Shown here: piece by piece, positions 2 to 4,385 of the stretch
Layout: each line of letters begins with the position of its first letter
How positions within the stretch are numbered: the first letter of the stretch is position 1
Source of the DNA: Vulcanimicrobiaceae bacterium
GTDB taxonomy: Bacteria; Vulcanimicrobiota; Vulcanimicrobiia; Vulcanimicrobiales; Vulcanimicrobiaceae
Direction: 5' to 3'
DNA: 32,253 bases
Assembly: GCA_046262595.1 (NCBI GenBank)
Contig: JBHEMM010000030.1
Location: 1 to 32,253, forward strand
Position numbers and translations under genes: made by a program
Notes under the pieces: generated by a model
Told to the model about the DNA's origin: nothing
Database searches by the model: none
Seen by the model: only the letters and a program-made list of their open reading frames with translations

Positions 2-781
2 TGTCGTGCGCCACCATTTTTGTTGAGCGTTCTCGTCACCGACACCGTCGGTAAATCGAACGCTGAGCGAAGTTATGTTTATCTCTTTTTCGCTCTCTAT
101 ATTTCTAAATACACACGGAACGATTCCGACAATCGGGCAACCCCGTTGGATCGGGCTAGCGCGTCCGCGCTTGGTGATGTAATCATCCTCTGTGTACGGA
201 AAGTACCAATCCTCGTTAACGTAAAGATCGAATTTTTCATTATGGAATATGTCGATATCTATATCAGCACCATACACCGTCCGCGCTTCGACCTTGAATC
301 CACCGACGACACTCGCGGCACCATTATTGGCTATGGTCATCCTAATCGCGGCGTAAAGCCCTTTAGCGTCCCTGGTGCGCGAAGACTGTACTGCTTCAAT
401 TCCAGCCGTAAATCTGGGGTATTGCTCGGCAATCTTGTTGCGAAGCACCTCATTCTCGCGCTCGGCGCTTTCAGCACGCGCCAAGGCGTGACGTAGCATT
501 TCAGGCGCTTCCGATGTGCTAGCGAAATGTTGATTTCCGCGAGAAACACGAAAAAATATAAATAAGCCAACCGCAACTAGAACTGAAATCGCGAGCCACG
601 GAACGGCCGATGGGACCCCGGCTAGCAGCGCATCGAAACCCGCGAGGGGTACTCCCGCGTGTCGCAACTCCTTCAGCATCGCCTGTTGCCTGCTAGCAAA
701 GATTGCGAAGACGCCTGCGGCGATAAATGGCGCTGCACTCCAAAATGCCGGGGATACTTGGGAGCGGATAAATCGGCCCAT
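2..781 (-). CDS. Hypothetical membrane protein (two N-terminal hydrophobic segments, short coiled coil, beta-rich C-terminal part); 3' end lies outside the window
   Basis: Not in the ORF track because it has no stop inside the window. Manual translation from ATG 781 gives 260 open codons to the edge: MGRFIRSQVSPAFWSAAPFIAAGVFAIFASR...VPWLAISVLVAVGLFIFFRVSR...ALARAESAERENEVLRNKIAEQ...AAIRMTIANNGAASVVGGFKVEART...; the DNA is visibly more AT-rich than the rest of the window. Confidence 0.7.
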   Translation of the reverse strand, partial: MGRFIRSQVSPAFWSAAPFIAAGVFAIFASRQQAMLKELRHAGVPLAGFDALLAGVPSAVPWLAISVLVAVGLFIFFRVSRGNQHFASTSEAPEMLRHALARAESAERENEVLRNKIAEQYPRFTAGIEAVQSSRTRDAKGLYAAIRMTIANNGAASVVGGFKVEARTVYGADIDIDIFHNEKFDLYVNEDWYFPYTEDDYITKRGRASPIQRGCPIVGIVPCVFRNIESEKEINITSLSVRFTDGVGDENAQQKWWRTT

Positions 782-876: not shown

Positions 877-894
877 ACGCTCAAATGGTAGGTG

Positions 895-939
895 TGTCAA
901 CTATATCACCTTGACAAGTGTTAAGTCCCTGCGTAAGCT
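895..939 (+). promoter_or_regulatory. sigma70/sigmaA promoter of ribBA-ribH with overlapping inverted repeats (candidate operator)
   Basis: Perfect -35 TTGACA (911-916), 17-nt spacer, -10 TAAGCT (934-939). Inverted repeats TGTCAA-N10-TTGACA (895-916) and TTGACA-ag-TGTTAA (911-924). Predicted +1 falls on the in-frame GTG at 946. Confidence 0.75.
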
Positions 940-945
940 GGCTTG

Positions 946-2358
946 GTGGGACCCTTTTCAAACGAACTCAATGCCGCGATGGACCGTGCGCGACTCTCGG
1001 CGGCGGATCTCGCCGAACGGTGCGGGCTGACGGAGTCGGCTATCTCCTATCTCCGGTCGGGCCAGCGCGAGCCTTCGTACCGTTCGCTTCAGCGCCTGAC
1101 CTCGGTGCTTCCCGATTTGGCGGCGACGCTGGATAAGGCCTCGCCTTTCGATTCGATTGAGGAGGCCATCAAAGACATCCGCGCGGGCAAAATGGTCATC
1201 GTCCTGGACGACGAGGACCGCGAAAACGAGGGCGACCTGGTAATGGCCGCCCAAATGGTCGCGCCTGAGGCGATCAATTTCATGCGCAAGCATGCCGGCG
1301 GCCTCATCTGCGTGCCGCTCACGGCGCGTCGCTTGGACGAGCTGCATCTGCCGCAGATGGTCGCCGACAACAGCGCCGTGCATGAGACCGCGTTCACCGT
1401 CTCCGTCGAGGCGCGCGGACGCACAACCACCGGCATTTCGGCGCACGATCGGGCGGCCACGATTCAGTCCTTGCTCGACCCGAATTCGCGCCCCGCGGAC
1501 CTGCTGCGTCCGGGCCATACGTTTCCGCTTCGCGCGCGCGACGGCGGCGTGCTCGTACGGGCGGGGCAGACGGAAGCGGCGGTCGATTTGGCGCGTCTTG
1601 CCGGTTTGTATCCTGCCGGCGTCATCTGCGAGATCATGGCCGAAGACGGAACGATGGAGCGCCTCGACGGGTTGATTGAGTTTGCGAAAAAGCATCAGCT
1701 TCGCTTGATCACCGTCAAAGATTTGATCGCGTACCGCTGGCGCACGGAAAAATTGCTGCACCGCGTCGCGCAGTTTAATCTTCCCACGCCGTTCGGTGCG
1801 TGGACCGGCTACGCGTTCGACAACTCGATTGACAGCAATACGCACGTTGCGCTCGTGATGGGCGAAATCGCTGACGGCAAGAACATTCCGGTGCGCGTGC
1901 ACAGCGAGTGTTTAACGGGAGATGCGCTGCATTCGCTTCGCTGCGACTGTGGAGCGCAGCGTGACGGCGCCATGGAGATCATTGCCAAAGAGGGACGCGG
2001 CGTGTTCCTGTACCTGCGTCAGGAAGGCCGCGGAATCGGCCTTGCAAACAAATTGCGGGCGTACCAGCTGCAAGATCAAGGCGCCGATACCGTCGAAGCG
2101 AATCTCGCGCTCGGCTTGCCGGTGGATAAGCGCGATTATGGCATCGGTTCGCAAATCTTAGCCGATCTCGGCGTCAAAGAGATGCGCATCATTACCAACA
2201 ACCCGCGGAAGATCTTTGGTCTGGAAGGCTACGGATTAAAGATCGTCGGACGCATTCCGATGCACACGCCATCCACGCCGTTCAACGAGAAATATATGGC
2301 GACGAAACGCAGCAAAATGGGTCATCTGTTCGAAGCCGCGCCTGCGAGCGCGACGTAA
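946..2358 (+). CDS. ribBA: XRE-family HTH fused to bifunctional 3,4-dihydroxy-2-butanone 4-phosphate synthase / GTP cyclohydrolase II
   Basis: DDEDRENEGDL, TTGISAHDR and RPGHTFPL (RibB); RVHSECLTGD..RCDCG, RQEGRGIGLANK and TNNPRK (RibA). The N-terminal ~60 aa (LSAADLAERCGLTESAISYLRSGQREPS) is HTH_XRE-like. Start GTG 946 preferred over TTG 943. Confidence 0.95.
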   Translation: MGPFSNELNAAMDRARLSAADLAERCGLTESAISYLRSGQREPSYRSLQRLTSVLPDLAATLDKASPFDSIEEAIKDIRAGKMVIVLDDEDRENEGDLVMAAQMVAPEAINFMRKHAGGLICVPLTARRLDELHLPQMVADNSAVHETAFTVSVEARGRTTTGISAHDRAATIQSLLDPNSRPADLLRPGHTFPLRARDGGVLVRAGQTEAAVDLARLAGLYPAGVICEIMAEDGTMERLDGLIEFAKKHQLRLITVKDLIAYRWRTEKLLHRVAQFNLPTPFGAWTGYAFDNSIDSNTHVALVMGEIADGKNIPVRVHSECLTGDALHSLRCDCGAQRDGAMEIIAKEGRGVFLYLRQEGRGIGLANKLRAYQLQDQGADTVEANLALGLPVDKRDYGIGSQILADLGVKEMRIITNNPRKIFGLEGYGLKIVGRIPMHTPSTPFNEKYMATKRSKMGHLFEAAPASAT

Positions 2359-2867
2359 TGGCGAAGCGTGAAAACGGCGGTAAGGGGAAGGCACCCGATT
2401 GCAGCGGCAAGCGTTTCGCCATCGTAACCGCGGAGTTCTACTCCGATCTGGCCGCGCAGCTCGAAGACGGTGCAAAACGCGCGTTGCGCGACTGCGGCGT
2501 GCACGATGCCGACATGCAGATCTACCGCGTCCCGGGCTGCTTCGAATTACCGGTGGCCGCAAAACGCCTGATCGAGGCGGACGCTGCGCTGGATGCGATC
2601 GTCGCGCTCGGCGTCGTGATTCGCGGCGAAACGCCGCATTTCGATTTCGTTGCCGGCGAATGCGCGAGGGGCATCATGACCGTGCAGATCGCAACCGGTG
2701 TGCCGATCGGATTCGGCGTTCTAACCACCGAAAACATGCGGCAGGCGCAAGAGCGAGCGGACGTCAACCGCGGAGATAAGGGATACGAGGCGGCGCTGGC
2801 GGCCGCCGCACTTTTGCACGTCCCCGCAATGCCGTCTTGCGCGCCGGCCGTAGGCTTCCGCCGTTAG
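2358..2867 (+). CDS. ribH: 6,7-dimethyl-8-ribityllumazine synthase
   Basis: VPGCFELP, LGVVIRGETPHFDFV, PIGFGVLTTEN..QAQERA; TAATG overlap with ribBA. Confidence 0.95.
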   Translation: MAKRENGGKGKAPDCSGKRFAIVTAEFYSDLAAQLEDGAKRALRDCGVHDADMQIYRVPGCFELPVAAKRLIEADAALDAIVALGVVIRGETPHFDFVAGECARGIMTVQIATGVPIGFGVLTTENMRQAQERADVNRGDKGYEAALAAAALLHVPAMPSCAPAVGFRR

Positions 2868-3038: not shown

Positions 3039-3329
3039 ATGGAAGACAAGAGCATCGTCTGCAAAGAGTGCGCGCGCCCTTTTACGTTCACCGTGCGCGA
3101 TCAGCAGTTTTATGCAGAAAAAGGCTTTGAAAATCAGCCGCAGCGCTGCCGCGACTGCCGCGTGACGCGCAAAGGCCCCGCTTCGGCAACACCGTCGGCC
3201 CGTGAAAATTTTGATGCCGTCTGCGCCGAATGCGGCACAGCCACAACGGTGCCGTTCCGCGCTAAAGGCGACCGGCCCGTTTATTGCCGCGCGTGCTTCG
3301 TGGCGCACGCTTCGGCAGCCGCCGTTTAG
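3039..3329 (+). CDS. Small zinc-ribbon protein (probable zinc-ribbon domain + CxxC-x17-CxxC domain)
   Basis: CKEC..FTFTVRDQQFYAEKGFENQPQRCRDC and CAECG...VPF....RPVYCRAC; strong SD. Confidence 0.88.
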   Translation: MEDKSIVCKECARPFTFTVRDQQFYAEKGFENQPQRCRDCRVTRKGPASATPSARENFDAVCAECGTATTVPFRAKGDRPVYCRACFVAHASAAAV

Positions 3330-3365: not shown

Positions 3366-4385
3366 ATGGAAGCTATCCGCTGGCAAGGTGACGCGGTCGA
3401 ATATGTCGACCAGCGTTTGCTGCCGCATGAGGCACTCGTGCGCCGTGCCGGTACGGTGGATGAAATGGAAAGCGCAATCCAAACGCTCGCCGTGCGCGGC
3501 GCGCCGTGTATCGGCGTCTTCGGCGCATACGGCGTCGCGCTGCTGCGCTCCAAGCTTTCCCGCGACGAGGAGTTTCATGCGGCGGCCATGCGCGTGCGCA
3601 ACGCGCGCCCGACTGCCGTGAACCTGATGTGGGCGGTGGATCGCGTGCTGGCCGCGGGCGACATGCTGGCCGAAGCCCATGCCATACATGCCGAGCAGCG
3701 GCACACGGACGACTTGATAGCGCAGGCAGGCGCCGAACTGATTGGGCAAAACGCCGCGCTTATCACGCATTGCAACACCGGCCCGGTGGCGACGGCCGGC
3801 GGCGGCACGGCGCTGGGCGTCATCATCTCGGCTGCCCGCGCCGGGAAACGCCCGCATGTTTTCGTGGATGAGACGCGTCCGTTGCTCCAAGGCTCGCGCC
3901 TTACCTATTACGAGCTCGCCGCCGAAGGGATCGATGCCACGCTGATCGTCGACTCGGCGGCGGCGGTGGTGATGCAGCGCAAGGGGATCGATCTGGCGAT
4001 TGTGGGCGCCGATCGTATTGCATGCAACGGCGATACGGCAAATAAAGTCGGCACGTATGCGCTCGCTATCGTGGCTGCGCACCATCGGGTGCCGCTGTAT
4101 GTCGCCGCGCCGCGCTCCAGCTTTGATTTCACGCTTCCATCCGGTGCGCAGATTCCCATTGAAGAGCGCGCGTCCGGTGAAGTCACGGCATTCGGCGACG
4201 CGCGCGTGGCTCCCCAGGCGGCGCGCGCATTCAACCCGGCGTTCGATATCACGCCCGGCCATCTAATCGACGGCTTCATCACCGAGTGCGGGATCGTACG
4301 GCCCCCGTACGTCGAGACGATTGCCAATCTGCAGCTGCGTCCGAACATGCGCGCACTGGCGAAAGCGGCGCAAAACGATCGATGA
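3366..4385 (+). CDS. mtnA: S-methyl-5-thioribose-1-phosphate isomerase
   Basis: VRGAP, RPTAVNL, THCNTG, ETRPLLQGSRLT, GADRIACNGDTANKVGTY, NPAFDITP. Confidence 0.95.
   Translation: MEAIRWQGDAVEYVDQRLLPHEALVRRAGTVDEMESAIQTLAVRGAPCIGVFGAYGVALLRSKLSRDEEFHAAAMRVRNARPTAVNLMWAVDRVLAAGDMLAEAHAIHAEQRHTDDLIAQAGAELIGQNAALITHCNTGPVATAGGGTALGVIISAARAGKRPHVFVDETRPLLQGSRLTYYELAAEGIDATLIVDSAAAVVMQRKGIDLAIVGADRIACNGDTANKVGTYALAIVAAHHRVPLYVAAPRSSFDFTLPSGAQIPIEERASGEVTAFGDARVAPQAARAFNPAFDITPGHLIDGFITECGIVRPPYVETIANLQLRPNMRALAKAAQNDR

Follow-up and report, generated by a model that had tools for sequence, protein, structure and literature searches.

A 32,253-nucleotide (nt) contig stretch of a Vulcanimicrobiaceae bacterium (the window, analyzed at its full length; we call the phylum Eremiobacterota) encodes a version of the riboflavin entry enzyme RibBA that begins with a helix-turn-helix (HTH) domain. 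The gene, here called HTH-ribBA, is followed by ribH and preceded by a compact promoter, across which lies a palindrome that resembles an operator. The locus comprises the following features.

946..2358, + strand: HTH-ribBA coding sequence, 470 codons from GTG 946; predicted leaderless transcript starting at or beside the start codon
976..1110, + strand: XRE-type HTH (Pfam HTH_3, PF01381, residues 12–56); 27.7 bits in Pfam against a cut-off of 23, conserved columns, AlphaFold2 (AF2) model, Foldseek
1159..1734, + strand: DHBP synthase (RibB) domain (PF00926, 295 bits, residues 73–264)
1762..2259, + strand: GTP cyclohydrolase II (RibA) domain (PF00925, 235 bits, residues 274–439)
2358..2867, + strand: ribH, lumazine synthase (PF00885, 170 bits); its ATG overlaps the ribBA stop codon (TAATG)
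910..925, no strand: candidate operator, 16-bp palindrome C-TTGACA-AG-TGTTAA-G, spanning the −35 hexamer and the adjoining 9 nt of spacer
911..916, + strand: −35 hexamer TTGACA, from the sequence; near-invariant (84–87 of 87 orthologous loci)
934..939, + strand: −10 hexamer TAAGCT, of the TAnnnT type, separated from the −35 by 17 nt; contains an in-frame stop, TAA

RibBA with an N-terminal helix-turn-helix domain

A preliminary description of this DNA had proposed that RibBA carries an in-frame N-terminal XRE-type HTH and that both catalytic halves keep their motifs, and both claims held. The frame is open from position 937, with the in-frame TAA (934–936) sitting within the −10 hexamer, and homology places the start codon at GTG 946 rather than TTG 943; across 87 orthologous loci the start is ATG in 46, GTG in 40 and TTG in 1. 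The NCBIfam RibBA equivalog (NF006803/PRK09311) scores 626.8 bits (cut-off 569) and spans residues 65–465 only, TIGR00506 and TIGR00505 score 262 and 245 bits (cut-offs 177 and 206), and the closest solved chain, the RibBA 4i14, aligns with residues 69–462 (E = 3.6e-136). Because the equivalog and 4i14 both exclude them, residues 1–64 form an added domain. The catalytic and metal-binding motifs DDEDRENEGD, HETAFT, RPGH, HSEC, RCDC, QEGRGIGL and TNNP (which of their residues are catalytic is our assumption) are invariant in 22 sequences. RibBA is single-copy in this assembly, and since the genome (89.7% complete) also has ribD, ribE and ribH, the fusion protein is probably the working RibBA enzyme of the cell.

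The AF2 model of the N-terminal domain comprises five helices (residues 3–14, 19–26, 30–37, 45–54 and 56–65; pLDDT 82.6). Its Foldseek matches include C.BclI, C.AhdI, CapH-NTD, HipB, SinR, P22 c2 and the 434 repressor, with TM scores of 0.70–0.75, rmsd of 1.4–1.9 Å over 56–62 residues and sequence identities of 20–27%. The probability is 1.00 for C.BclI, C.AhdI, SinR and P22 c2, with E-values of just 0.007–0.05, which are modest because the domain is short. The recognition helix GLTESAISYLRSGQREPSY and the REPSY turn are nearly invariant among orthologues. A full-length AF2 model built from a 22-row alignment (mean pLDDT 54, below 50 for residues 66–244) was unusable for domain arrangement.

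With the N-terminal 72 residues as query, 205 proteins matched. Nearly all of the 120 listed matches are 454–489 amino acids (aa) long and combine PF01381, PF00926 and PF00925, and their sources name them merely RibBA of Candidatus Eremiobacteraeota. This query found no free-standing HTH paralogue, matches below 259 aa being contig-end fragments of the same fusion, and gave one match only in the window's own genome. The domain stands in an open frame of ~470 aa in 108 of 113 genomes of the window's family (f1) and in 3 of 3 of the sister family in the same order (f2), and a second f1 sample yielded the fusion in 101 of 110 genomes. Five f1 genomes (G018, G241, G227, G246, G260) are HTH-negative owing to contig-end cuts, two (G181, G219) returned no RibBA with this query, and three (G077, G145, G162) encode a RibBA truly without the HTH. 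The fusion was not found in any of the 5 examined genomes of the next family (f3), where RibBA begins MPLATIEEAI right after ribE, and the remaining families of the phylum gave weak generic HTH matches only. A scan of one genome per species found 261 relatives; the best 80 carry the titles Baltobacteraceae, Eremiobacteraeota, Vulcanimicrobiota, Cybelea, Tumulicola, Aquilonibacter or Rubrimentiphilum, plus two Acidoferrum. Some tallies include unpublished genomes (G178, G204, G208, G210, G213, G214, G223, G251, G254, G260). By these counts the fusion is conserved and no gene-calling accident; the concern that orthologues might lack the HTH or start downstream of it did not materialize for the great majority, the start codon placed by homology lying upstream of the domain.

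A survey of RibBA architectures, limited to the best 150 of 27,040 RibBA-like cluster representatives so that more distant HTH fusions are possible, bore out the expected combination of HTH_3 with DHBP_synthase and GTP_cyclohydro2: HTH_3 occurs in only two representatives, both of this clade. For the representatives P0205 and P0277 the HTH_3 scores are 33.4 and 39.7 bits.

The same survey returned other N-terminal RibBA fusions (P0201, P0252, P0163), namely with TetR_N (a cluster of 6 members), with an ECF sigma factor (r2 and r4; 6 members, one named from Reticulibacter mediterranei) and with a HAD phosphatase (2 members), alongside the RibE-RibBA and RibD-RibBA fusions that are commonly seen. 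Transcription domains may repeatedly have RibBA as their partner.

A conserved palindrome across the ribBA promoter

The promoter of the window consists of TTGACA, a 17-nt spacer and TAAGCT, with GTG 946 following after another 6 nt. These hexamers, named in the preliminary description, are present in the sequence and conserved in relatives, but a generic sigma-70 scanner made no call here, because TAAGCT matches TATAAT at just 3 of 6 positions; the promoter is backed by conservation among orthologues rather than by consensus score. Most loci have a TAnnnT hexamer 16–18 nt past the −35 (TAGGCT in 20, TACGCT in 16 and TAGCCT in 8 of 87), which often doubles as an in-frame stop.

The start codon follows the −10 by 6 nt in 57 of 87 loci and by 6–8 nt in 75 of 87. 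Because of this short distance the ribBA mRNA is predicted to be leaderless, and the start lies ~6–8 nt after the −10 with no Shine-Dalgarno sequence, as expected of such a transcript. A scan of the own genome for leaderless promoters gave 7 candidates, too few for statistics. The same spacing leaves no room for RNA control, in agreement with the earlier remark that no leader is available for an FMN riboswitch. Nothing in the window matched in an Rfam search, and the FMN riboswitch (RF00050) was found 0 times in the window, 0 times in the own genome and in 0 of 150 genomes of the phylum, with a control search that was positive in 7 of 14 known genomes.

A second apparently leaderless promoter of the own genome, on contig C8 at position 38814, reads TTGACT-CGAACATATGTTCG-GTATACAAT-6 nt-ATG and has the operator-in-spacer layout seen at ribBA; its spacer element is presumably a LexA box of the Gram-positive type.

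Within the ribBA promoter, TTGACA-AG-TGTTAA (911–924) forms a 14-bp palindrome with one mismatch. We aligned 90 orthologous loci, 89 of which have upstream DNA, and found TTGACANNTGTCAA with at most three mismatches in 87 of the 89, 24–40 nt ahead of the aligned first residue. Seventeen of these 87 loci have no mismatch, 60 have one, 8 have two and 2 have three; L077 and L087 lack the palindrome. By position, C(−1) is kept in 76 of 87 loci, TTGACA in 84–87, TGT in 82–87, AA in all 87 and G(+14) in 74, with less than 0.4 bit per position in the flanks from −40 to −2. A second sample, which shares genomes with the first and in which, as in the first, every row is kin, had the palindrome in 80 of 80 loci with at most two mismatches. 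The spacer of a sigma-70 promoter has no known sequence requirement. The right half (TGT-AA-G) falls in this spacer, yet is conserved in 82–87 of 87 loci.

The palindrome is largely specific to this position and clade. The 14-mer has 2 sites in the 2.4-Mb own genome, the second being a perfect site on contig C41 (C41:1580–1595), and it occurs, mostly once, in 78 of 111 f1 genomes, compared with 5 of 111 for the reversed control. A 15-mer, CTTGACANNTGTHAA, is present in 86 of 113 f1 and 2 of 3 f2 genomes versus 1 of 15 in f3 and 6 of 69 in other families. Nearly all sites for which the position of ribBA is known lie ~25–45 nt upstream of it; in the exceptions, G045 and G126, the exact 14-mer is elsewhere and the site at ribBA is degenerate. 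The motif search proposed for orthologues and for ribD and ribE was thus positive for ribBA (87 of 89 and 80 of 80 loci), and no palindrome site stands at ribD or ribE, which in the own genome are on contig C41; ribD directly follows a ComF-like gene.

Three half-sites forming two inverted repeats (895–916 and 911–924) had originally been described. The right palindrome (910–925) is conserved beyond chance, and the left repeat (895–916) is not conserved: an exact inverted repeat of TGTCAA (895–900) and TTGACA (911–916) exists in the window, but a 6-nt inverted repeat carries no significance by itself in a stretch of 111 nt, and the outer GTCA occurs at the offset of 895–900 in 6 of the 27 orthologous promoters that have the AT-rich arm described below and in 0 of 58 armless loci.

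Several other elements and readings were considered. We rejected a dif/Xer site made of arm and palindrome, which would have half-sites 2 nt apart and so no 6–8-nt crossover region, and a divergent promoter on the opposite strand, which would have no −10 at a workable spacing. A sigma-54 reading of TGGCA...GGTGC in the arm is off by one in spacing. The GGGCAAAGCC motif was rejected as a genomic repeat, having 13 matches in the own genome, 12 of them in unrelated coding-like stretches. Six loci (L004, L020, L024, L026, L028, L029) have one to three TTTATGGGCAAAGCC-like repeats, ~17–21 nt apart, before the ribBA promoter; in the own genome this motif does not recur as a genome-wide repeat. In at least eight relatives (L013:1390–1420, L016:1395–1425, L052, L055, L072, L096, L097, L102) a TetR-family gene is divergent from ribBA, and a palindrome ACTTGAAAC-N4-6-GTTTCAAGT, not found in the window, lies 10–35 nt ahead of the ribBA −35 and probably serves as operator for the TetR protein.

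Co-occurrence of the HTH and the palindrome

The three f1 genomes with an HTH-less RibBA offer a comparison. In G077, ribBA retains TTGACA-17-TAGCCT-6-ATG but has lost the right half-site (TTGACACCGTTTGC); both HTH and palindrome are missing at ribBA in G145 and G162, which have 0 motif sites genome-wide. Recognition-helix and operator variants also appear to be paired: helix variant Y (ISYL) stands with TGTTAA in 13 of 13 scored loci and variant L (ISLL) mostly with TGTAAA or TGTCAA (37 of 45), a suggestive comparison that leaves 29 rows outside the scoring pattern and is confounded by phylogeny.

These observations bear on the possibility that a separate, unlinked transcription factor binds the palindrome and that its co-occurrence with the fusion reflects shared ancestry. 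Fusion and palindrome are found in the same clade, so that phylogeny alone could yield the association; the three HTH-less genomes may go back to one event; and a divergent TetR-family gene with a palindrome of its own is present in at least eight loci. We nevertheless regard this explanation as very unlikely. No other regulator is conserved beside the locus, where upstream neighbors vary, and the TetR palindrome differs in sequence and is missing from most loci, the window included. G077 keeps its promoter and loses exactly the half-site outside the −35, and the ISYL and ISLL helices go with their respective half-sites, though this pairing is confounded by phylogeny.

Palindrome copies, mobile DNA and neighboring genes

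Two further features lie on the far side of the palindrome.

891..909, no strand: AT-rich arm ggtgtgtcaactatatcac, adjoining the operator and containing TGTCAA (895–900)
2..781, − strand: membrane or coiled-coil protein of at least 260 aa without a Pfam family, divergent from ribBA

The arm, (G/C)TATATC-NN-C, is found in 27 of 87 orthologous promoters; at other sites it stands on both sides of the palindrome, giving perfect palindromes of 36–46 bp. The genes at the position of the divergent reading frame vary among relatives (transposase, TetR, uncharacterized membrane proteins), and the frame in the window is probably cargo of a variable island. In G148 (L031:4389–6573) and G237 (L032:4628–6720), two palindrome-plus-arm copies with arms inward form inverted repeats of 35–41 nt, the arm being their inner end, and bound a segment of ~2.1 kb that carries Zn_ribbon_IS1595 (in G148 also DDE_Tnp_IS1595) and an uncharacterized membrane protein. 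In G118 (L035:5900–6100) two IS1595-type transposase copies face each other across one palindrome. By Pfam no IS1595 transposase (Zn_ribbon_IS1595, DDE_Tnp_IS1595) is present in the window; as the contig breaks off within the island, the assembly could have missed a copy.

The palindrome might therefore be mainly a feature of IS1595-type mobile DNA, an insertion target or part of a terminal repeat, with the HTH playing a structural role as in cyanase or HppE, both of which are among the fold matches of the domain. Beyond the bounding repeats of G148 and G237, all 6 IS1595-type transposase genes seen begin ~75 nt from a palindrome, with a 5' region conserved among them. Paired copies have the same central dinucleotide in 3 of 6 site pairs (own genome, G148, G237), as target duplication would produce, and ribBA 5' ends often coincide with contig ends in the draft genomes, as a repeat there would cause. 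Set against this, the central dinucleotides differ in the other three pairs (G053, and G260 and G208, where the arrangement rests on unpublished genomes), and a transposase lies upstream in only 2 of the 30 loci that have 1.5 kb of upstream DNA. The palindrome is armless in 58 of 87 loci, yet keeps its exact offset to the −10 and start codon; its nearly single-copy state in each genome is unlike that of an IS end; and in G077 it was lost along with the HTH while the promoter was retained. Near-invariance of the recognition helix would likewise be unexpected of a purely structural appendage. On balance we consider this account unlikely.

The second palindrome of the own genome suggests a link between the two contigs. 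It is perfect, has the same AT-rich arm (C41:1554–1595) and lies upstream of an Aldo_ket_red gene, in the order ribD, ribE, thioesterase, ADH, 212-aa protein, aldo/keto reductase. Because this order is the same in G148 and G201, C41 and the window contig are probably neighbors, separated by a variable island that has the two palindromes as its ends. The picture that follows is of an ancestral ribDE(BA)H operon that split, of a ribBA that gained the HTH and its own promoter, and of a gap that became an island bounded by two operator-like palindromes. It is possible that an IS1595-type transposon uses the operator as a landing site and regenerates a complete operator at each end.

Such additional sites also raise the question of whether the HTH binds the palindrome for something other than simple self-repression, acting as an activator or anti-repressor or having its main targets at the extra palindromes, at the C41 island boundary and at transposase genes. 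The perfect site at the far boundary of the island, an arrangement that recurs in G201, and the perfect 36–46-bp versions between divergent genes in G118, G053 and G237 are in keeping with this idea. We judge it quite unlikely, as the extra sites occur in a minority of genomes with neighboring genes that are not conserved, and as the ribBA site is centered ~28 nt upstream of the predicted start, in a core promoter with a 16–18-nt spacer, the classic position for a repressor and not that of a class I/II activator or a MerR-type regulator.

On the other side of the operon, ribH is followed in the window by a gene whose small product has two zinc-finger domains of the treble-clef type (zf_Tbcl, zf_Tbcl_2; 3039–3329), as it is in G148 and G237, and then by an IF-2B-family gene (3366–4385), probably methylthioribose-1-phosphate isomerase.

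A proposed model of self-repression by HTH-RibBA

The fusion, together with a fusion-linked palindrome on a leaderless promoter, is solid. From it we propose, as the mechanism with the best support, that the bifunctional enzyme probably represses its own gene through the fused HTH. Residues 65–470 would be the only RibB/RibA enzyme of the cell and residues 1–64 an XRE/Cro-type HTH. Solved structures of DHBP synthase and RibBA show dimers, and an HTH-RibBA dimer would bind the 16-bp CTTGACA-NN-TGTnAAG over the −35 and spacer of the leaderless ribBA-ribH promoter and block RNA polymerase. The resulting negative feedback would keep the amount of entry enzyme constant, in a phylum whose searched genomes yielded no FMN riboswitch. 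We infer DNA binding by the HTH, repression in preference to activation, and the dimer geometry.

Several points weigh against this proposal. The HTH_3 score exceeds its cut-off by 4.7 bits only, and the Foldseek list of the domain also includes the enzymes cyanase and HppE, whose XRE-like N-terminal domains are not, to our knowledge, known to bind DNA. With ribD and ribE siteless, the pathway as a whole is uncovered, the site being at ribBA-ribH only. The three HTH-less RibBAs cluster together within f1 in a quick tree (SH-aLRT 87, long branches; rows L002, L005 and L015, which were too short, left out), so that HTH and palindrome may have been lost together just once; more generally, all counts come from kin genomes and are not independent. 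The palindrome is also entangled with mobile DNA: extra copies in ~12 genomes flank unrelated genes, and it may have a role as transposon target or end.

An extension of the proposal would make the catalytic body the ligand sensor of a one-component repressor, its occupancy shifting the two N-terminal HTHs on the operator, and hence a protein-based replacement for the FMN riboswitch in one order of Eremiobacterota. We offer this only tentatively and think it more doubtful than simple self-repression; that a ligand of the catalytic domains (GTP, ribulose-5-phosphate, a product or flavin) modulates binding is speculation.

Relation to known regulatory systems

Bacterial riboflavin synthesis is a textbook case of riboswitch control. 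The FMN riboswitch (RF00050) resembles the proposed circuit in placing feedback control at the first committed riboflavin genes; the HTH-RibBA locus differs in having neither RF00050 nor a leader. How flux is set in a phylum without a detectable FMN riboswitch is the question that follows, and for one order of the Eremiobacterota, a little-known soil phylum, the locus provides a concrete and testable answer. With one protein, a single 16-bp site and a leaderless promoter, the system is compact; it suits in vitro study and, if an effector exists, use as a metabolite-responsive switch. Annotation pipelines label the protein RibBA only and overlook the HTH. With its candidate operator beside an island bounded by insertion sequences, the locus may also show how a regulatory site becomes an insertion hot spot.

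Among XRE proteins, the best structural matches of the N-terminal model are the C proteins of restriction-modification systems, SinR, 434 and P22 c2. These proteins recognize short palindromes of ~14 bp lying across promoters, and C proteins regulate their own expression. They differ from HTH-RibBA in being small, free-standing and dimerized via the HTH or a C-terminal domain, whereas the HTH-RibBA dimer would come from a 400-residue enzyme.

Enzymes that double as regulators are called trigger enzymes. As in such enzyme-repressor fusions, the DNA-binding domain of HTH-RibBA sits on the sole orthologue, and a conserved candidate operator is co-distributed with the fusion. Our full-text literature searches, supplements aside, found no description of HTH-RibBA, consistent with the initial statement that no characterized one was known, and the words 'helix-turn-helix' and 'DNA-binding' do not occur in a 2025 review of riboflavin regulation. 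Passages of the RbkR study (PMC5397151) name BirA, NadR and PutA as bacterial enzyme-repressors. In these proteins, as in the extension that we offer tentatively for HTH-RibBA, a one-component repressor of the enzyme's own pathway has the catalytic domain for its sensor. They are unrelated to HTH-RibBA in sequence and have known effectors, and for HTH-RibBA ligand-independent self-repression is equally possible.

The closest analogue of HTH-RibBA is RbkR of Archaea, in which a riboflavin kinase is joined to a winged HTH and for which the same passages report DNA binding shown experimentally (PMC5397151). Both are riboflavin-pathway enzymes with an N-terminal DNA-binding domain, and RbkR, too, is the sole orthologue in most genomes that have it, with operators predicted ahead of rib genes in organisms that lack FMN riboswitches (PMC5397151). 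The two differ in enzyme, fold and domain of life: RbkR is a kinase with a MarR-like winged HTH from Archaea, and HTH-RibBA is the entry enzyme with an XRE/Cro HTH_3 domain from Bacteria. They differ also in reach, since the regulon here is ribBA-ribH only, and in the basis of DNA binding, predicted for HTH-RibBA and shown by experiment for RbkR. If our proposal is true, HTH-RibBA would give RbkR its first counterpart in Bacteria, and would be the first instance we found of regulation by the pathway's own entry enzyme.

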